Source of the DNA: Blastocatellia bacterium
GTDB lineage: Bacteria > Acidobacteriota > Blastocatellia > UBA7656
DNA length: 64,000 nucleotides
Assembly: GCA_963765495.1 (NCBI GenBank)
Contig: CAVXWP010000007.1
Location: forward strand, 256,001 to 320,000
Reading direction: 5' to 3'
Shown: positions 21,507-30,682 of the stretch, piece by piece
Layout of the letters: each line of letters begins with the position of its first letter
How positions within the stretch are numbered: the stretch's first letter is position 1
The notes under the pieces: model-generated
What the model was told of the DNA's origin: nothing
What the model saw: the letters and a program-made list of their open reading frames with translations, nothing else
Databases searched by the model: none
Program-made: the position numbers and the translations under genes

Positions 21507-24500
21507 ATGAAAATAAAAAGAGCAGTGATGATGGCAGTGCTGGCAGTGGCAGTTGTCTCACTGGCTGTGCCGATCTTTGGCCTTCGCGCCTCGGCCTCCA
21601 GTGCCTCAACTCCCCCAATTGCCTCTCTTGCCTCAAGACCGGCTTCCTCCGGTCCTGTTGCTCCGGTTGTCGAGCCCACCACTACCGTGGCTCCTCAGCC
21701 TTCAAGCGACAACAATAAGATTCCTCAGGCGACCCTTGATGCACTCGGCATCAAGCGCGTTCCTAAAAACAAACTCGGGGCTATCAGGCAGCAGATCGCA
21801 GCCGGTATTGCCGGTAGATCCAATGCCTCTATCGCCAGACCTGCTGACGGCAAGATCAGCGTCACTGGCCGCCAGTCTCGCCGCTCTAGCCCGCCTCTGA
21901 TCGGCCAACCTGTCGTTTTGAATGAGAACGCCGCCTTGTCGGCTGCCGTCATCACAACGGTCGGCGGACGCGACACTCAGTTTTCTGAGGTGGCATTGGT
22001 AGCCGACTGGGACGGTCGCGAAGATTGTGCTGTTGATCGCGGCGTCAAGATTGACGATCTCTCGGAAGTTGAGCCTGATATCGATTTCGTTTTGACTCGG
22101 GCAGCAATCTCTGAGCACACACGCGGCAACGGCCATCCCTTCTTCAATATTTATTATTATGGTGATTCGGTCGGCAATCTCTATATCGGCATAGACTTTT
22201 TTGGGGATGCTCTTGTAGATACGATTCTGATCATCAACGTTCCCGAACTGGTCACAACAGGGACGACAAACGGGTTCACGCTTTTGAATCCAACTGCGGG
22301 TGATTTCACAGACGATCAGGTGACCATAACCGGTATCGCCGTTAACCCCGTAGCTGACCTCGGTGATTTTTCCGAAGGACCTGACTCTAATTTTGACCTG
22401 TGCGATACGGATGCGTTTCCTGAGGCGCGACACGGAGAGGTGATTTACTTCTCGACTCACGACACGGAAGGCGGAGCCTCGAATGCCGCCAATCAACCCA
22501 TCCGTACTCGCATTTTTGCAATAGGATTGTTTGAGAATTCGGATGCGCTTGGCGGATTCGTTCAGTTCACAAACGTCCGGCAATTGCTCCGCAGCCAGTT
22601 TTCAAACGTCGCGGGCGTGGCCGTCGATGATGACGGCAGCTTGTATTTCGAATTGGTCAACCTCGTCACTCTCAATCCGAGCACGGGGACCGGTTCGGAA
22701 GGCGCTGCCATCTTCAAGGCTACCGAACTCAAACGCACCGTTTGCGGCGACACGGGCCGCATCAACCGCGTGATCCCGTTGATACCGACCCCGTCGACAA
22801 TCACCTCGACCACGGCCCTGACCAACGGCTCGACGAGGTTGACAAACTACACCGGGGCCTCGACGAATTTCGGCAACATCGTGGCTATCACCTGCGGGCC
22901 CTGCAACGTGCTTTATGCAGCCGTCTCTGCCTCTAACACCGGGATTCAGTCCCTTGCTCAGGGCAGATTCAAGGCCACCTCAACCTTCCCAGACGGATTG
23001 CCTTCGATGGTGATCAGTTTCGCCGACTGCGGCGGGGCCTTTGACATGTGCTCAGGAGAGGCCGTGGCCTTGATTGATCCCAATGTAGGCGGCATCCTTC
23101 CAATTGCAGACGGGCGAGCAGACGGGGGAGGCGATTTTGGCAACTGGAGAGTCTTCGTCGTAGGCAACGGACCAGACCTCCCGAGCATAGGAACGAACGC
23201 GCTGGCAGGCAACATCCCCATAACCCAGCACATAGATATGCAGATAGACTTCTCCTCGCACTCTGGGATAGCAGTAAACCAGGAGTCAACCGTGTATGTG
23301 ATAAGCGGAGGAGCGCCGGCAGCCGACTCGGGAGCCTCGCCGTTTGTGACAGAAGTGTTGTGCTTCCCCGACTGGTGTCCGATGGATCGGCGAGCGGATT
23401 ATGTGGACTACCGAGGGAACTCGTTCCCGAACCCGCCAGCCAGTGGAGGGAATGTAGGAGATGGAGATTCGGATCGATTCGATCACATCTACTATCAAGC
23501 ACCGATAGACACGGTGAATCTGCTGCCGACTGGCTTGAGTGGATTGGCAGTTGGATTCCTTCGACAGACAAACCGACTTGTGGGAACAAGCCCGTTTGCG
23601 ATACCGCTAGCAGACGGGAGCCCGCTTGGTGTGACCCAGACCGTGCTTGGCGATGATGATTTCGCAGGGCCGATCATATTTGAAGATCTCGATCCGAGCC
23701 ATCAGGTAGCCGGAGGAGACGATCAGAACACGCCCTTCCGTGGCGATGACAATGACGGATCAGGCGACCCCTCCCTTGATGGGGCGCTTGAAGGCGGATT
23801 CGAGTTCTGCTTTGGTGGCGGGACGACAATCGGAGCCAACTGCGATTCAGACGGCGTCGATGTCTGGAACGCCTTCTTCTGGAACTCAAACGGCAACATC
23901 ACTTTCGGCGAGGGCGATCCTACGCCAAGCCCGAATGTGCTGATATTCAGAGCCGGTCCTCCGAGAATCGCTCCGGCCTGGGTCGACCTAAACCCCGACA
24001 CTCGTGGAGCAGACTTTGGATTGGGACCAGACTTTGGCACCTTCCCTGTGATGGCACTGGGATTTGCCAACATCAACTCGTTCAAGATTCGATGGATCAA
24101 CGTGCCAGAGTTCGGCACGATCGGAGTCGACGAAGTAAACTTCGCGCAGTGTATGTCGTCGAACACGTTCTCAGTGACGCTGTATGACGATGGAACAGGC
24201 TGCGACGAGAACGAGGCGCAGGCCTTCAATCCTGCAAACCCGATAGGCAACAACGCCGTGCCGTTCGACCGACAGGAAGGGCCGACCGACCTGCGCTACA
24301 CGGTGGAACCGGTTACAGGGACAATCGTAGGATGCCCGCCGCGCAATCCGGGAAGCGGGAACTTCTGCTTCGAGTATTGCAGGATGGACCTGCTAGGGAC
24401 GAAGGATCGCCCGGTGCTTGTGGGCTACACCATAGGGTTCCGCGATCCGTTGAACCCGCCAGGACTGTGCGCGTCAAACCTGTCGTGTCTGGCCAGAGAA

Positions 24501-25933
24501 GTCGAACAGCCCGACGGCCACTTTGGAGTGATCCCGAATTGCGATCAGGCGCAGGTGGGAGCGATCTGCCCGTGCTTGATAGGAGAAGGGACGGAGCCGG
24601 AGATCTACGAGTTGTTCAACACAGGAGTTGATGCAGTGGTGAATTCGCAGGGACAGGTGACGTTTGCCAAACCGTCATTTGACCTGAGATTCGAAGGAAA
24701 CGGAGACTGCACGCCGCTGCGTCAGGATGAGAACAATCGAGGGAAGGTGTGCTTCTACGGAGTAGGATGCGGAGAGCCGCCCAACCCGACCTGCAGGCGG
24801 TGATAGTACCGGCAGGAGCCGGGACACCGAACGCAGGAACAGACATAGTAGACCGACTCTGCGCAGTAGGAGTAGAGATAGTCGGATGTGGATTCCTGCC
24901 AAATGAAGTGACGACGATCTGCTCTGGGATCGGAACGGAGACAGGAATACCGATAGTACGACCCGGAAAGACAGTGACGACAGCGGTCGAGGCGGTATGC
25001 GAAGTCGACGTGAAGGGAGACGGGACGACGGAAGTGCCGATCGTATTGGCAAACGTGGTGCCAGTGAGCAAGAACCTGATCACGGCGAGTTTCCCGACCG
25101 TGAGTTTCGGATCAGCCGGAGCAGCAGCGACGAGCACGGCCTTCCCGCTGGGATGCTGTGGAGGAGTAGTGGAAGTAATAGTGACAACGACGTTCACGGA
25201 TGGAGACAACAATGTGTTTGGAGACTTCACGAGGACGTCGGTGTGCGCAGTGAACCTTGGCGTGAGAGCACCGGTAGTGTTGAGTGCGTCGCCGTCATCA
25301 GGGAATTGTGCGGTACCACAGGACATCCTGATAGTGGGATCGTGCTTCCTGACGCCGGGAGCAGTGACATCGGTGTTTGCAGTAGCCGAAGACGGGACAG
25401 TGGTACAGGCGACGGTATTCACGATCTTGAAGAACGACACGATAGATGCGTTATTCAACTTCGGGAGTGCTAACGCAGGGAAGGTGTTCCGAATCTTCGT
25501 AACAGGCCCAGGAGGGACGAGCAGGAACCTGTCGGCGTTGGTAGCGGGACAGACGTGCAACATACTTGGAAACGAGCAAGGGATCCAGGTGACGTTCACG
25601 TGTAATTCCGGAGGCAACCCTGGTGATAATGGAAACCCGCCAGACATCGCAAAACTGGATGAATGCCGGTTGAACCGAACATCATCAGGAGGGTTTGTGC
25701 TGACAGTGCTGGGAAGCAACATCAAGCAGGGAGCAACAGCAACAGTCGGAGGAGTGGAACCGAGGAAGATCAAGTTCAAGAGTCCGATCTCGGGGACGCA
25801 AGCCTTCGGTAAGTTGGTGTTGAAGGGACGAGTATGTCAAGGGCTGCCAGGAGCGATCATAGTGACGAATCCTGGACCGAACGGGGGACCGTCGCAGCCG
25901 TTGTCATGCGCCAAGACCTGTCCGTCGAACTAG
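21507..25933 (+). CDS. Large exported Cys/Asp/Gly-rich protein, copy 1; split by a 1-nt frameshift at ~24795 (pseudogene or sequencing error)
   Basis: ORFs 21507-24803 and 24749-25933 together are collinear with intact copy 2; signal peptide; NIDO-like NSNGNITFG...RIAPAWVDL; IPT/TIG-like PVVLSASPSSG. Confidence 0.85.
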
Positions 25934-25957
25934 TTAGACGGAAGCGATCAAGGGGAA

Positions 25958-26030
25958 AGGTGAGAGAGGAAACTCTCTCACCTGAATTTAGAAGCAAAGT
26001 TGAGGAGAATCGGTTTTTCCGGTTCTCCTC
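25958..26030 (+). other. Double-hairpin 3' UTR of copy 1
   Basis: aggtgagagag-gaaa-ctctctcacct, then gaggagaatcgg-tttt-tccggttctcctc; no immediate U-tract. Confidence 0.7.
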
Positions 26031-26305
26031 AGCAAACAGCCTCGGTTGTTTAGTTTGAATGTTCACTTTTGAAACGCTTTGTGAGTGAAAAAATTATCTT
26101 GTCGGTTTTTTATCGAAAGTGTCAGCATTATTTATTTTGATTATTTAAAGACTTGATTCTTTCAAACTTAAAGTGTATTTTTTCGGCTTGAAAAGAAGTT
26201 TTTTTCTGAAAAGGGAACACTTAAGTAGATGGTCTCAAACTACTGTCCGGCAAGAGGCCGGGCGCGCTTATTTTGGAAATACCCAATAACTTTGGAGAGG
26301 GATAG

Positions 26306-29300
26306 ATGATGAAAACAAAAAGAGCAGTGATGATGGCAGTGCTGGCAGTGGCAGTTGTCTCACTGGCTGTGCCGATTGTTGGGCTTCGCGCCTCGGCCTC
26401 CAGTGCCTCAACTTCCCCAATTGCCTCTCTTGCCTCAAGACCGGCTTCCTCCGGTCCTGTTGCTCCGGTTGTCGAGCCCACAGCGTCTGTGGCTCCTCAA
26501 CCTACAAGCGACAACAATAAGATTCCTCAGGCGACCCTTGATGCCCTCGGTGTCAAGCGGTTACCTGACGGCGTCTCTTCCAAATCTGTAGGGGAACGGT
26601 TTGCTCGCGGCTTGACCGGCGGCAAAAATAGCCCCAGACCTTCAATTCAGGGACCCGGTAACTCCGTGCCTCTGTTTGATCCTCATAACCGTCCTCACAG
26701 GCCTGCGGTTAGCGATCCTTCGATCGGTCAACCCGTCGTCCTCGACGGTACTGCCGCTTTCTCGGCTGCCGTTGCCACAAACGTCGGCGGACGCGACTCT
26801 CAGTTCTCTGAGGTTGCCTTGGTAGCCGACTGGGACGGACGCGAAGATTGTGCAGTTGACCGTGGCACCAAGATAGATGATTTCTCAGAGGTCGAACCTG
26901 AAATCGATTTCGTACTTACACGGGTTGCCATCTCTGAGCATACTATTGCCAACGGATTCCTTGATAACCAGTTTTATTATGGTGATTCGATCGGCAATTT
27001 CTATGTCAGCTTTGATCTTGATGGCGACGGGCTGGTTGATATTGTAAATGTTGTCAACATCCCTGAGCTCGTCGGCACGGGTGCCAGTGATGGTTTCGCT
27101 CTGCTCAACCCGACTGCGGGTGATTTTACTGATGATCAGGTGACCATAACCGGTATCGCCGTTAACCCCGTGGCCGACCTCGGTGATTTCGGACTGTGCG
27201 GAATAACGGGTGAAGTCACCTACGTTTCGATTCACGACACGGAAGGCGGAGCCTCGAATGCCGCCAATCAACCCATCCGCACTCGTATTTTCGCCTTTGC
27301 CACATTTGAGTTGGGCGGGGCCGTTTTTTCAGGCGGATCATTGCAGATACTCCGCAGCCAGTTCTCAAACGTAGCGGGCGTGGCCGTCGATGATGACGGC
27401 AACCTCTATTTCGAATTGGTTAACCTTGTCACTCTCAACCCGAGCACGGGGACCGGTTCGGAAGGCGCTGCCATCTTTAAGGCTACCGAACTCAAACGCA
27501 CCGTTTGCGACACAACCGGGCGCATCAACCGCGTGATCCCGTTGATACCGACCCCGTCGACAATCACCTCGACCACGGCTCTGTCCAACGGCTCGACGAG
27601 GTTGACAAACTACACCGGGGCCTCGACGAATTTCGGCAACATCGTGGCTATCACCTGCGGGCCCTGCAACGTGCTTTATGCAGCCGTCTCTGCCTCTAAC
27701 ACCGGGATTCAGTCCCTTGCTCAGGGCAGATTCAAGGCCACCTCAACCTTCCCAGACGGATTGCCTTCGATGGTGATCAGTTTCGCCGACTGCGGCGGGG
27801 CCTTTGACATGTGCTCAGGAGAGGCCGTGGCCTTGATTGATCCCAATGTAGGCGGCATCCTTCCAATTGCAGACGGGCGAGCAGACGGGGGAGGCGATTT
27901 TGGCAACTGGAGAGTCTTCGTCGTAGGCAACGGACCAGACCTCCCGAGCATAGGAACGAACGCGCTGGCAGGCAACATCCCCATAACCCAGCATATAGAT
28001 ATGCAGATAGACTTCTCCTCGCACTCTGGGATAGCAGTAAACCAGGAGTCAACCGTGTATGTGATAAGCGGAGGAGCGCCGGCAGCCGACTCGGGAGCCT
28101 CGCCGTTTGTGACAGAAGTGTTGTGCTTCCCCGACTGGTGTCCGATGGATCGGCGAGCGGATTATGTGGACTACCGAGGGAACTCGTTCCCGAACCCGCC
28201 AGCCAGTGGAGGGAATGTAGGAGATGGAGATTCGGATCGATTCGATCACATCTACTATCAAGCACCGATAGACACGGTGAATCTGCTGCCGACTGGCTTG
28301 AGTGGATTGGCAGTTGGTTTCATTCGTTACACGAATCGGCTTGCAGACAACCCGATAAGCGATGGGGTTGCCCTGGGCTTCACGCAGCCGATATTGGGAG
28401 ATGATGATTTCGCAGGGCCGATCATATTTGAAGATCTCGATCCGAGCCATCAGGCAGCCGGAGGAGACGATCAGAACACGCCCTTCCGTGGCGATGACAA
28501 TGACGGATCAGGCGACCCCTCCCTTGATGGGGCGCTTGAAGGCGGATTCGAGTTCTGCTTTGGTGGCGGGACGACAATCGGAGCCAACTGCGATTCAGAC
28601 GGCGTCGATGTCTGGAACGCCTTCTTCTGGAACTCAAACGGCAACATCACTTTCGGCGAGGGCGATCCTACGCCAAGCCCGAATGTGCTGATATTCAGAG
28701 CCGGTCCTCCGAGAATCGCTCCGGCCTGGGTCGACCTAAACCCCGACACTCGTGGGGCAGACTTTGGCCTTGGACCAGACTTTGGCACCTTCCCTGTGAT
28801 GGCACTGGGATTTGCCAACATCAACTCGTTCAAGATTCGATGGATCAACGTGCCAGAGTTCGGCACGATCGGAGTCGACGAAGTAAACTTCGCGCAGTGT
28901 ATGTCGTCGAACACGTTCTCAGTGACGCTGTATGACGATGGAACAGGCTGCGACGAGAACGAGGCGCAGGCCTTCAATCCTGCAAACCCGATAGGCAACA
29001 ACGCCGTGCCGTTCGACCGACAGGAAGGGCCGACCGACCTGCGCTACACGGTGGAACCGGTTACAGGGACAATCGTAGGATGCCCGCCGCGCAATCCGGG
29101 AAGCGGGAACTTCTGCTTCGAGTATTGCAGGATGGACCTGCTAGGGACGAAGGATCGCCCGGTGCTTGTGGGCTACACCATAGGGTTCCGCGATCCGTTG
29201 AACCCGCCAGGACTGTGCGCGTCAAACCTGTCGTGTCTGGCCAGAGAAGTCGAACAGCCCGACGGCCACTTTGGAGTGATCCCGAATTGCGATCAGGCGC

Positions 29301-30682
29301 AGGTGGGAGCGATCTGCCCGTGCTTGATAGGAGAAGGGACGGAGCCGGAGATCTACGAGTTGTTCAACACAGGAGTTGATGCAGTGGTGAATTCGCAGGG
29401 ACAGGTGACGTTTGCCAAACCGTCATTTGACCTGAGATTCGAAGGAAACGGAGACTGCACGCCGTTGAGACAGGATGAGAACAACCGAGGGAAGGTGTGC
29501 TTCTACGGAGTAGGATGCGGAGAGCCGCCCAACCCGACCTGCAATCTGGTGGTAGTACCGGCAGGAGCCGGGACACCGAACGCAGGAACAGACATAGTAG
29601 ACCGACTCTGCGCAGTAGGAGTAGAGATAGTCGGATGTGGATTCCTGCCAAATGAAGTGACGACGATCTGCTCTGGGATCGGAACGGAGACAGGAATACC
29701 GATAGTACGACCCGGAAAGACAGTGACGACAGCGGTCGAGGCGGTATGCGAAGTCGACGTGAAGGGAGACGGGACGACGGAAGTGCCGATCGTATTGGCA
29801 AACGTGGTGCCAGTGAGCAAGAACCTGATCACGGCGAGTTTCCCGACCGTGAGTTTCGGATCAGCCGGAGCAGCAGCGACGAGCACGGCCTTCCCGCTGG
29901 GATGCTGTGGAGGAGTAGTGGAAGTAATAGTGACAACGACGTTCACGGATGGAGACAACAATGTGTTTGGAGACTTCACGAGGACGTCGGTGTGCGCAGT
30001 GAACCTTGGCGTGAGAGCACCGGTAGTGTTGAGTGCGTCGCCGTCATCAGGGAATTGTGCGGTACCACAGGACATCCTGATAGTGGGATCGTGCTTCCTG
30101 ACGCCGGGAGCAGTGACATCGGTGTTTGCAGTAGCCGAAGACGGGACAGTGGTACAGGCGACGGTATTCACGATCTTGAAGAACGACACGATAGATGCGT
30201 TGTTCAACTTCGGGAGTGCTAACGCAGGGAAGGTGTTCCGAATCTTCGTAACAGGCCCAGGAGGGACGAGCAGGAACCTGTCGGCGTTGGTAGCGGGACA
30301 GACGTGCAACATACTTGGAAACGAGCAAGGGATCCAGGTGACGTTCACGTGTAATTCCGGAGGCAACCCTGGTGATAATGGAAACCCGCCAGACATCGCA
30401 AAACTGGATGAATGCCGGTTGAACCGAACATCATCAGGAGGGTTTGTGCTGACAGTGCTGGGAAGCAACATCAAGCAGGGAGCAACAGCAACAGTCGGAG
30501 GAGTGGAACCGAGGAAGATCAAGTTCAAGAGTCCGATCTCGGGGACGCAAGCCTTCGGTAAGTTGGTGTTGAAGGGACGAGTATGTCAAGGGCTGCCAGG
30601 AGCGATCATAGTGACGAATCCTGGACCGAACGGGGGACCGTCGCAGCCGTTGTCATGCTCCAAGACCTGTCCGTCGAACTAG
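26306..30682 (+). CDS. Large exported Cys/Asp/Gly-rich protein, copy 2 (intact, 1458 aa)
   Basis: RBS ggagaggg, signal peptide, DLDGDG Ca-loop-like motif, NIDO-like segment, C-terminal Ig/IPT-like domains. Confidence 0.9.
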   Translation: MMKTKRAVMMAVLAVAVVSLAVPIVGLRASASSASTSPIASLASRPASSGPVAPVVEPTASVAPQPTSDNNKIPQATLDALGVKRLPDGVSSKSVGERFARGLTGGKNSPRPSIQGPGNSVPLFDPHNRPHRPAVSDPSIGQPVVLDGTAAFSAAVATNVGGRDSQFSEVALVADWDGREDCAVDRGTKIDDFSEVEPEIDFVLTRVAISEHTIANGFLDNQFYYGDSIGNFYVSFDLDGDGLVDIVNVVNIPELVGTGASDGFALLNPTAGDFTDDQVTITGIAVNPVADLGDFGLCGITGEVTYVSIHDTEGGASNAANQPIRTRIFAFATFELGGAVFSGGSLQILRSQFSNVAGVAVDDDGNLYFELVNLVTLNPSTGTGSEGAAIFKATELKRTVCDTTGRINRVIPLIPTPSTITSTTALSNGSTRLTNYTGASTNFGNIVAITCGPCNVLYAAVSASNTGIQSLAQGRFKATSTFPDGLPSMVISFADCGGAFDMCSGEAVALIDPNVGGILPIADGRADGGGDFGNWRVFVVGNGPDLPSIGTNALAGNIPITQHIDMQIDFSSHSGIAVNQESTVYVISGGAPAADSGASPFVTEVLCFPDWCPMDRRADYVDYRGNSFPNPPASGGNVGDGDSDRFDHIYYQAPIDTVNLLPTGLSGLAVGFIRYTNRLADNPISDGVALGFTQPILGDDDFAGPIIFEDLDPSHQAAGGDDQNTPFRGDDNDGSGDPSLDGALEGGFEFCFGGGTTIGANCDSDGVDVWNAFFWNSNGNITFGEGDPTPSPNVLIFRAGPPRIAPAWVDLNPDTRGADFGLGPDFGTFPVMALGFANINSFKIRWINVPEFGTIGVDEVNFAQCMSSNTFSVTLYDDGTGCDENEAQAFNPANPIGNNAVPFDRQEGPTDLRYTVEPVTGTIVGCPPRNPGSGNFCFEYCRMDLLGTKDRPVLVGYTIGFRDPLNPPGLCASNLSCLAREVEQPDGHFGVIPNCDQAQVGAICPCLIGEGTEPEIYELFNTGVDAVVNSQGQVTFAKPSFDLRFEGNGDCTPLRQDENNRGKVCFYGVGCGEPPNPTCNLVVVPAGAGTPNAGTDIVDRLCAVGVEIVGCGFLPNEVTTICSGIGTETGIPIVRPGKTVTTAVEAVCEVDVKGDGTTEVPIVLANVVPVSKNLITASFPTVSFGSAGAAATSTAFPLGCCGGVVEVIVTTTFTDGDNNVFGDFTRTSVCAVNLGVRAPVVLSASPSSGNCAVPQDILIVGSCFLTPGAVTSVFAVAEDGTVVQATVFTILKNDTIDALFNFGSANAGKVFRIFVTGPGGTSRNLSALVAGQTCNILGNEQGIQVTFTCNSGGNPGDNGNPPDIAKLDECRLNRTSSGGFVLTVLGSNIKQGATATVGGVEPRKIKFKSPISGTQAFGKLVLKGRVCQGLPGAIIVTNPGPNGGPSQPLSCSKTCPSN

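Follow-up and report, generated by a model that had tools for sequence, protein, structure and literature searches.

In the genome of a soil acidobacterium of the class Blastocatellia (G000; 7.30 Mb in 17 contigs), two tandem plus-strand paralogs occupy positions 21507–30682 of the window, by which we mean the whole 64,000-nucleotide (nt) stretch of DNA analysed, and their synonymous sites run from pyrimidine-rich to purine-rich along the coding strand. This skew is a property of silent sites, is confined to duplicated DNA, recurs in unrelated gene families and starts at the boundaries of homology blocks; across Acidobacteriota, it tracks the presence of twin identical copies of tuf. We consider it probable that a recombination-linked, strand-polar conversion process with a purine/pyrimidine bias recoded the synonymous sites of these repeats. 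[quoted passage not shown]

We express the bias as R4, the purine fraction at four-fold degenerate sites, with genes approximated as non-overlapping open reading frames (ORFs) of at least 150 amino acids (aa), without a gene caller. An earlier note on this DNA had set a pyrimidine-rich line against a purine-rich one from hand counts, and both were exact on recount (A7 G11 C25 T17 at 21601–21660; A18 G24 C12 T6 at 24961–25020). It had also placed the bias largely at synonymous sites; far from vanishing at four-fold sites, the skew is strongest there, and codon position 3 shows the largest purine shift in copy 2, the intact downstream paralog. Between the first and last thirds of copy 2, R4 rises from 0.34 to 0.88, G/(G+C) at the same sites from 0.36 to 0.84 and A/(A+T) from 0.33 to 0.92, and both the keto fraction (0.49 to 0.52) and the GC content of four-fold sites (GC4; 0.59 to 0.57) stay flat. 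The signature is therefore purely one of purines and pyrimidines. In 50-codon windows, copy 2 has an R4 of 0.18–0.35 over 26381–27505, passes 0.5 at about 27730–27960, reaches 0.86–0.91 at 28031–28255, is down to 0.38–0.54 at 28406–28855 and then lies at 0.68–0.97 from 28781 to the stop codon (0.85–0.97 at 29300–30680). Its crossing point maps to about 23050–23200 in copy 1, in agreement with the switch that had been placed near 23100–23200. Copy 1 is split; in its 5′ ORF (L014), R4 is 0.16–0.21 around codons 50–250 and climbs to 0.84 (100-codon windows). The recurrence reported for copy 2 extends further, because copies 1 and 2 and a third full copy (G000:C1:712136–716554; protein 89% identical) have the same profile.

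These values are extreme for the genome, in which four-fold R4 is 0.477 and the 1st to 99th percentiles of 4,732 long ORFs span 0.34–0.61: the 3′ ORF of copy 1 (24749–25933), with an R4 of 0.874, stands at the top of all of them. R4 is at least 0.8 in 273 of the 64,840 100-codon windows genome-wide, and 47 of the 273 fall within the three copies; the 273 windows are spread over 62 ORFs, of which many are multi-copy. Within the window, six neighbouring genes, ffh among them, have an R4 of 0.38–0.51 and no gradient. The unusual codon choice described earlier is borne out by GGA, which encodes 47 of the 77 Gly residues of the 3′ block; genome-wide, GGA accounts for 20% of Gly codons and GGC for 46%. 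On the purine-rich strand of the skewed zones, A is enriched about 2.3-fold and G about 1.5-fold relative to genome composition.

The rise in copy 2 occurs twice. R4 is 0.91 directly before the short diverged segment at 28256–28400 and 0.38–0.54 directly after it, and is back to 0.9 by about 29300; the target gene therefore has two purine ramps, one for each unbroken homology block (Table 1). In the second, 28850–30682, a purine occupies 295 of the 345 four-fold sites. The 5′ part of the gene, 26306–27500, is mostly diverged from copy 1 (mean identity 69%), with a mean GC skew of −0.04 and a mean TA skew of +0.14.

GRINS were defined operationally as repeats of more than 500 bp with more than 80% DNA identity and mean absolute GC and TA skews above 0.15 in 150-nt windows (PMC8256042, main text). 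Computed in 150-nt windows with a 30-nt step, the segment 28850–30682 falls within this definition: it is 1.83 kb long, is 99.5% identical to copy 1 and at least 97% identical to copy 3 over most of its length, and has a mean absolute GC skew of 0.183 (positive) and a mean absolute TA skew of 0.186 (negative), rising to 0.217 and 0.197 over 29200–30682. Here, identity was taken within the same genome, partly in tandem, where the paper takes it within the same polyketide synthase (PKS). The whole of 21507–30682 (0.134 and 0.137) and the 5′ part at 26306–27500 (0.090 and 0.144) are below the skew threshold. Consistent with GRINS, the two skews are correlated and strongest at third codon positions. 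The correlation is negative (r = −0.40 to −0.46), so that G pairs with A, as the earlier note had seen, and 28850–30682 does not have the typical form with a positive correlation and G paired with T. According to the main text of PMC8256042, most GRINS are positively correlated, anticorrelation ‘was also observed’, and GRINS are found in many phyla and gene families, transposases being the commonest host in four of five phyla. The description of a GRINS-like repeat with a purine signature in a non-PKS gene thus stands for the 3′ block, but ‘non-PKS’ and ‘purine-type’ are not new categories by themselves, because that paper already reports anticorrelated GRINS and many host families. The data support the assignment of the 3′ block to GRINS of the minority purine/pyrimidine type, in a gene-converted paralog family.

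A genome scan for the same signature, which the earlier note had proposed, found it concentrated in duplicated DNA (304 kb of G000 at a length of at least 500 bp and an identity of at least 80%). Both skews exceed 0.25 in 6.5% of duplicated 150-nt windows against 0.6% elsewhere, and the G-with-A type makes up 951 of the 1,022 strongly skewed duplicated windows. The gradient, for which R4 of the first third is subtracted from that of the last, has a mean of +0.218 in 140 duplicated genes and +0.007 in 4,528 non-duplicated genes. Gradients above +0.3 occur in 16 of 64 duplicated families compared with 44 of the 4,528 non-duplicated genes (1%; Fisher odds ratio 34), whereas gradients below −0.3 occur in no duplicated family and in 20 non-duplicated genes. 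All six families with at least five copies have the gradient. From the first to the last third of 50 skewed duplicated genes, the purine fraction changes by +0.53, the keto fraction by −0.07 and the GC fraction by −0.01. Skewed genes with Pfam-confirmed frames include transposases in five domain sets (IS4, IS110, DDE_Tnp_1, DDE_Tnp_1_5 and DDE_Tnp_4), two EF-Tu, two radical-SAM and three C25 peptidase paralogs, and HYR/DUF11 surface proteins. The most extreme gradient of the genome, from 0.0 to 1.0, is that of the duplicated radical-SAM gene (G000:C14:103590–105716 and G000:C9:864573–866699), which resembles the tetraether lipid synthase Tes at 319 bits, under the 450-bit cut-off. An IS110 gene in two ORFs (L032; G000:C9:43519–44766) has an R4 of 0.85 in both and, unlike the intact IS110 families, lacks a pyrimidine-rich 5′ part. 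Elsewhere, purine-rich stretches of the plus strand at G000:C9:32401–33700 and G000:C2:165201–167700 have raw purine fractions of 0.91 and 0.88, against 0.61 for the finding described here (600-nt windows); they may be low-complexity repeats.

The polarity of the skew is fixed. R4 climbs along the coding strand to 0.7–1.0 at the 3′ end in 16 of 16 profiled representatives, most of which begin at about 0.0–0.3; the short C25 peptidase L036 begins at 0.7–0.8. Long C25 genes show where the climb starts. In L028, the unique nt 1–275 have an R4 of 0.41–0.50, the match with L029 (99.5%) and L037 (92%) starts at nt 277–283, and R4 is 0.00–0.06 at nt 301–600 and 0.75 by about nt 1100. The ramp resets at about nt 1200–1400, near the end of the three-way block (nt 1501), after which R4 climbs to 0.9–1.0 in the final 1.3 kb. 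In L029, the block that it has in common with L028 is preceded by 2.3 kb of unique 5′ sequence without skew, and L037 has an internal block with a ramp of its own. These data show that polarity follows the homology block, not the gene. L028 (G000:C1:311124–314861) and L029 (G000:C7:559920–565667) are 99.5% identical over 3.46 kb, and between nt 2251 and 3675 their R4 is 0.92–1.00 in every 50-codon window, mostly exactly 1.00.

Scored on the plus strand irrespective of genes, the difference in purine content between the right and left thirds of a repeat exceeds 0.1 in 11 of the 41 repeat families, with the right third always the higher and the reverse in none. Reverse complementation leaves a pyrimidine-to-purine run as it is, so that within a block each of the two strands is purine-rich toward its own 3′ end. 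Chromosome-scale GC skew is −0.07 to +0.06 in 50-kb windows, against a local skew of 0.2–0.35, and leading and lagging strands are not assignable because the 50-kb skew is too weak (at most 0.07). A Chi-like motif was considered and rejected: among 5- to 7-mers on the purine-rich strands of 13 genes, compared with 200 synonymous shuffles, the Shine-Dalgarno-like AGGAG alone stood out (84 observed against 54.6 expected, 1.5-fold, z 6.2), with no longer motif enriched. The bias thus acts on base class in general and is not driven by a motif.

The three copies, one of them on another contig, form a mosaic of identical blocks and blocks 46–83% identical, a mark of gene conversion, which holds long blocks of the paralogs near-identical. 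In an identity map built per window, the deviation from the R4 baseline is 0.286 in windows at least 95% identical and 0.178 in windows less than 85% identical. The claim that the strongest skews fall in the shared blocks is borne out to the extent that skew correlates with inter-copy identity (Spearman 0.36–0.38); it fails at two segments that we weigh below. A comparison of single-copy with multi-copy homologues points the same way as the correlation. A distant single paralog, L016 (C1:280045–283047; 46% identical), has diverged and is unskewed (R4 0.45–0.67). In G015, which has two dispersed copies of the target family, the sole block that is at least 97% identical is the purine-rich one (R4 0.8–0.9); in G018 and G004, which represent two genera, the copies are less than 90% identical everywhere and unskewed (R4 0.2–0.7). 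The target-family gene of G008 is purine-rich throughout, and its last third is at least 97% identical to partial copies at contig ends.

The dependence on a second copy extends to a housekeeping gene. The two tuf copies of G000 (C2:435716–436903 and C2:454392–455579) are 99% identical, the repeat comprises the ORF only, and R4 rises from 0.32 to 0.89. Between them on the same strand, fusA, rpoC and rpoB are flat, with an R4 of 0.41–0.45 in both end thirds, and the nearby rplA and rplJ (0.39–0.65) show a slight fall instead of a rise. The earlier note had held that an equal skew in other highly expressed genes would count against its reading, and these five are unskewed. We compared the R4 of tuf with that of flanking same-strand ORFs at 35 tuf loci. 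In 12 genomes from six taxonomic families with twin copies of equal search score, tuf R4 is 0.72 (range 0.56–0.87) against 0.44 for the flanking genes, and the difference is positive in 12 of 12 (mean +0.28). Where a single tuf was found (10 genomes), the values are 0.43 and 0.46, with a negative difference in 8 of 10 (mean −0.03), and four genomes with two diverged copies have 0.43 and 0.37 (mean +0.06). Eight Blastocatellia drafts in which the tuf copy number is uncertain have 0.66 and 0.44 (mean +0.23), and G026, with one full and one partial tuf, has 0.67 and 0.46 (+0.20). Left out of the count were L078 and L086 (G087, G063); two twin-copy loci, L082 (G091; R4 of 0.63 in the first and 0.56 in the last third) and L084 (G047; 0.57 and 0.58); the partial or contig-end loci L040, L049, L050, L054–L059 and L064–L066; and L060–L063, which are second copies of counted genomes.

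Between genera, the 5′ third of tuf has accumulated 1,473 transversions against 582 transitions (55 genus pairs from 11 genera of the family), with 42 and 6, respectively, between G000 and G021; in these alignments the excess points to lineage-specific drives on base class. In many drafts of the class among G001–G040, tuf was not found, lay at the end of a contig or sat on a separate one, which suggests that twin tuf copies break short-read assemblies.

The observed facts call for a process that needs a second copy, acts on base class, is strand-specific and changes sign across a block. Of the two causes put forward in the earlier note, a strand-biased process linked to conversion is well supported, and selection on mRNA folding or pairing is poorly supported. 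For the gradient itself, we infer a mismatch-repair mechanism. A broken copy would be repaired from another copy, and its top strand would enter heteroduplex left of the break, whereas right of the break the bottom strand would do so. The invading strand would be the 3′ tail pairing with the donor and, once all break positions are averaged, the heteroduplex strand would shift steadily across the block. Depending on the geometry, a purine/pyrimidine difference between copies would then present either a purine:purine or a pyrimidine:pyrimidine mismatch, and MutS-type repair that corrects purine:purine better would bias conversion by both base class and position. If purine:purine mismatches were corrected against the invading strand and pyrimidine:pyrimidine mismatches left, invading strands would gain pyrimidines, which is the direction observed, and many rounds of such biased conversion would build the gradient. 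Two mutS1 genes and a single mutL are present in G000, and NucS was not found there. In mouse cells, break geometry and position decide which strand wins mismatch resolution between repeats (PMC9001825). The two mutS1-type genes of G000 (C9:303484–306120 and C15:168455–170956) are full-length and both score above the family cut-off; the second MutS may be worth study.

Several observations weigh against such a conversion process. The gradient is at or below 0.3 in 48 of the 64 duplicated families, 12.7-kb and 8.9-kb repeats among them. In the target gene, skew and identity are linked no more than moderately (Spearman about 0.37), with pyrimidine skew persisting in the diverged 5′ block and no skew in the identical stretch 28400–28850. 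The ramps at block boundaries could in part have been inherited with a duplicated module instead of being made in place. Near-identical tuf pairs, with transitions to transversions of 10:0, 20:13, 9:4 and 10:7, have no transversion excess. The twin status of tuf rests on aligned identity in 4 of the 12 genomes and on equal search scores in the others, and related genomes are not independent. Two single-copy genomes, G112 and G055, have a purine-rich tuf, although a second copy may have escaped assembly. In G008, G021 and other acidobacterial families, tuf is purine-rich end to end even though the repeat unit is exactly the ORF; a purely strand-symmetric model is therefore insufficient, and a second, orientation-dependent component is needed. 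Finally, the relative efficiency assumed for purine:purine and pyrimidine:pyrimidine repair is that of Escherichia coli MutS, from which Acidobacteriota may differ.

The pattern might instead be mutational in origin. In this account, which we rate as unlikely, 3′ single-stranded tails would lose purines or gain pyrimidines during recombination by damage or error-prone synthesis, and conversion would fix and spread the changes. The same restriction to repeats, symmetry and position dependence are predicted, and the pyrimidine-enriched strand gains T more than C, which would fit a loss of purines with A then inserted opposite the gap; however, transversions are not enriched among the differences between near-identical copies. 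Strand-specific damage of resected tails and biased correction predict the same pattern, which cannot separate them. It is quite improbable, in our judgement, that skew came first and conversion second, with low-complexity skewed DNA recombining more readily and so staying identical, as the GRINS authors propose (PMC8256042, main text). Such an order would agree with G015, where identity of at least 97% is kept in the skewed block only, and with the diverged 5′ block of the target gene, skewed without identity. It leaves the source of the skew, its fixed polarity and its start at homology boundaries unexplained, and single-copy tuf is mostly unskewed.

Selection on the transcript or its translation (purine loading against mRNA structure, C-rich Rho-binding tracts avoided or created, or a separate tRNA pool) is largely refuted, and we give it very little chance. 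The bias does lie on the coding strand, tuf is purine-rich throughout in several families and AGGAG is 1.5-fold over-represented on the purine-rich strand. But the pattern is common to poorly and highly expressed genes of unrelated function, transposases included; fusA, rpoB, rpoC, rplA, rplJ and 99% of single-copy genes are without it; in long genes it begins at homology boundaries and not at gene starts; and it is gone once paralogs diverge. Codon bias from high expression was rejected as well, the same five genes being without the preference and transposases having the pattern. Least probable of all, to the point of being negligible, is that foreign origin, a chromosome-scale strand asymmetry or an assembly or polishing artefact produced the skew. 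In its favour, mobile elements make up many of the skewed genes, the genome resembles a metagenome assembly and its best-matching run is a soil metagenome. However, a swing from 0.0 to 1.0 within a gene is beyond any donor genome, and the pattern recurs in an independent Logan contig and, in other genomes taken from different records, in tuf and the target family. Chromosome-scale asymmetry was rejected on a GC skew of at most 0.07 per 50 kb (−0.07 to +0.06) and an R4 of 0.38–0.51 in the neighbours within the window.

Returning to biased conversion, we raise a wider idea that we hold to be possible but doubtful: skewed repeats in general may be the footprint of position-dependent, base-class-biased conversion, with the class of skew set by the mismatch-recognition system of the lineage. 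Bacteria with MutS, by handling purine:purine and pyrimidine:pyrimidine mismatches unequally, would build purine/pyrimidine gradients from end to end of homology blocks. Actinobacteria have NucS in place of MutS–MutL, and the same geometry would there yield skews of G+T versus A+C, the classical GRINS signature. NucS favours G-T, G-G and T-T mismatches, and its activity on the remaining ones, A-C above all, is weak or absent (review PMC8228993). In a pilot on IS110 transposase genes from plasmids, a small sample in which copy numbers are uncertain and G and C dominate four-fold sites in the high-GC actinobacteria, the keto fraction at four-fold sites drops from 5′ to 3′ in six of six actinobacterial genes, by 0.06–0.31 and in four of them by at least 0.22. 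Within this set (L110–L115; Streptomyces, Rhodococcus and Glutamicibacter plasmids) it falls, for example, from 0.57 to 0.27 and from 0.61 to 0.30. Six IS110 genes from MutS lineages have keto changes of 0.00 to −0.12, and the sole strong gradient among them, in an Enterobacter insertion sequence (IS; L120), is of the purine/pyrimidine class (R4 0.23 to 0.57). The class of skew thus fits the idea of repair-system dependence, which did not predict the direction of the actinobacterial gradient. If true, the idea would account for how GRINS originate and bring to light a form of biased gene conversion that is new.

The target family is, as far as its translation tells, a large secreted protein without an assigned family. 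The product of the 5′ ORF of copy 1 has a signal peptide-like start, a Pro/Ser/Ala-rich linker and many Cys residues. A Pfam search assigned no family to copy 2 and gave copy 1 only a match to DUF959 below threshold, an NCBIfam search gave only a CoaZ repeat match below threshold, and a search of the PDB found no relative. Homologues of copy 2 are present in 24 of the 24 same-family genomes searched, and the named relatives that carry them are Blastocatellia/Acidobacteriota metagenome-assembled genomes. The whole repeat unit is about 4.5 kb. At the protein level, the 5′ ORF of copy 1 is 89% identical to copy 2, and its 3′ ORF is 98% identical to residues 1076–1458. As assembled, copy 1 lies in two ORFs because of a 1-nt deletion near 24793–24803, where it reads TGCAGGC-GGTGATA and copy 2 reads TGCAATCTGGTGGTA; there is no homopolymer at the break. 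A Logan contig of run X1 (a soil metagenome containing 0.91 of sampled words and probably the source sample) spans 24300–25300 and has an intact T at 24793, but could be copy 2 or 3; run X2 yielded only short fragments, 90–99% alike, from a relative, and no RNA run was listed among those containing the sequence. Copy 1 may be a decaying copy whose 3′ part is still undergoing conversion. The long antisense ORFs at the 3′ end of each copy are best read, from their coding frames, as probable by-products of the skew and not as genes. They would stay open because their third positions face purine-rich sense third positions and are mostly pyrimidine, and all stop codons end in a purine.

Table 1 Features of the tandem paralogs and their skewed zones, in window coordinates
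Feature	Position	Strand	Basis or value
Copy 1, 5′ ORF, 1098 aa	21507..24803	+	ORF list, translation
Copy 1, antisense ORF, 387 aa	24616..25779	−	ORF list
Copy 1, 3′ ORF, 394 aa, different frame	24749..25933	+	Translation
Copy 1, break: 1-nt deletion and three clustered substitutions relative to copies 2 and 3	24790..24805	+	Alignments
Copy 2, intact gene, 1458 aa	26306..30682	+	ORF list, translation
Pyrimidine-rich synonymous zone, copy 2 (copy 1 ~21580–22700)	26380..27500	+	R4 0.18–0.35
First ramp, identical block, R4 ~0.3–0.5 to 0.9 (copy 1 ~22750–23555)	27500..28255	+	Windows at least 97% identical to copies 1 and 3
Short diverged segment and indel (copy 1 ~23555–23650)	28256..28400	+	Alignment; identity 0.72 at window 28256
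Second ramp and plateau, purine-skewed, GRINS-qualifying (copy 1 ~24100–25933)	28850..30682	+	99.5% identity, mean R4 0.86
Copy 2, antisense ORF, 341 aa, twin of 24616–25779	29503–30528	−	ORF list

G000 offers a clean case of GRINS, with one base class, a fixed polarity and starts at block boundaries. Housekeeping duplicates such as tuf are hit as well as mobile elements, and the presence of the skew across the phylum varies with twin tuf. As the variables can be read from sequence, the hypothesis of repair geometry combined with a mismatch-class bias is directly testable. Practical consequences follow as well: recoding of this kind yields long spurious antisense ORFs, distorts predictors of codon usage and horizontal transfer and probably breaks draft assemblies at tuf, and the skew marks sites at which paralogs exchange sequence.

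Two dispersed, near-identical copies with the repeat limited to the ORF, as in the acidobacterial twins, are also the arrangement of enterobacterial tufA and tufB, which undergo concerted evolution by gene conversion. The enterobacterial pair differs in that tufB of E. coli K-12 is unskewed (R4 0.37 to 0.38). Some IS genes of E. coli tend in the direction seen in G000 (IS1 insB 0.52 to 0.96, IS3 insF 0.49 to 0.71 and IS5 0.36 to 0.55), and IS30 is flat; insB of E. coli K-12 IS1 is at L109:11178–11681. Replication- and transcription-linked asymmetries (GC skew, purine loading) similarly place an excess of G and/or A on one strand, but in G000 the sign flips within a gene, neighbours in the same operon are unaffected and the local skew is 0.2–0.35. 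GC-biased gene conversion is likewise a recombination repair bias that shifts silent-site composition without selection on the product. Its bias, however, is strand-symmetric and favours G and C, whereas here GC4 is unchanged (0.59 and 0.57) and the bias sets purine against pyrimidine in a strand-specific and position-dependent manner.

Among the closest counterparts are the GRINS described in the main text of PMC8256042, whose authors in 2021 regarded the origin, spread and maintenance of these repeats as unknown and offered no mechanism. Both consist of duplicated coding DNA on the kilobase scale, and in both the skews are intense and correlated, peak at third positions, switch sign along one strand and are tied to gene conversion. 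They differ in the pairing of G with A and the anticorrelated skews found here, cases that the paper mentions in passing, and in the host, an acidobacterium outside the five phyla surveyed there, with tuf among the targets. The main text of the paper makes no mention of gradient, polarity, orientation, heteroduplex, mismatch repair, Acidobacteria or elongation factor, and a literature search that covered few subscription journals found only five papers that mention GRINS and no report of a polar purine/pyrimidine gradient in bacterial repeats or of a skewed tuf. What goes beyond published GRINS is the fixed polarity anchored on the boundaries of homology blocks, the inclusion of tuf and other cellular duplicates in an unsurveyed phylum, and the contrast with copy number.

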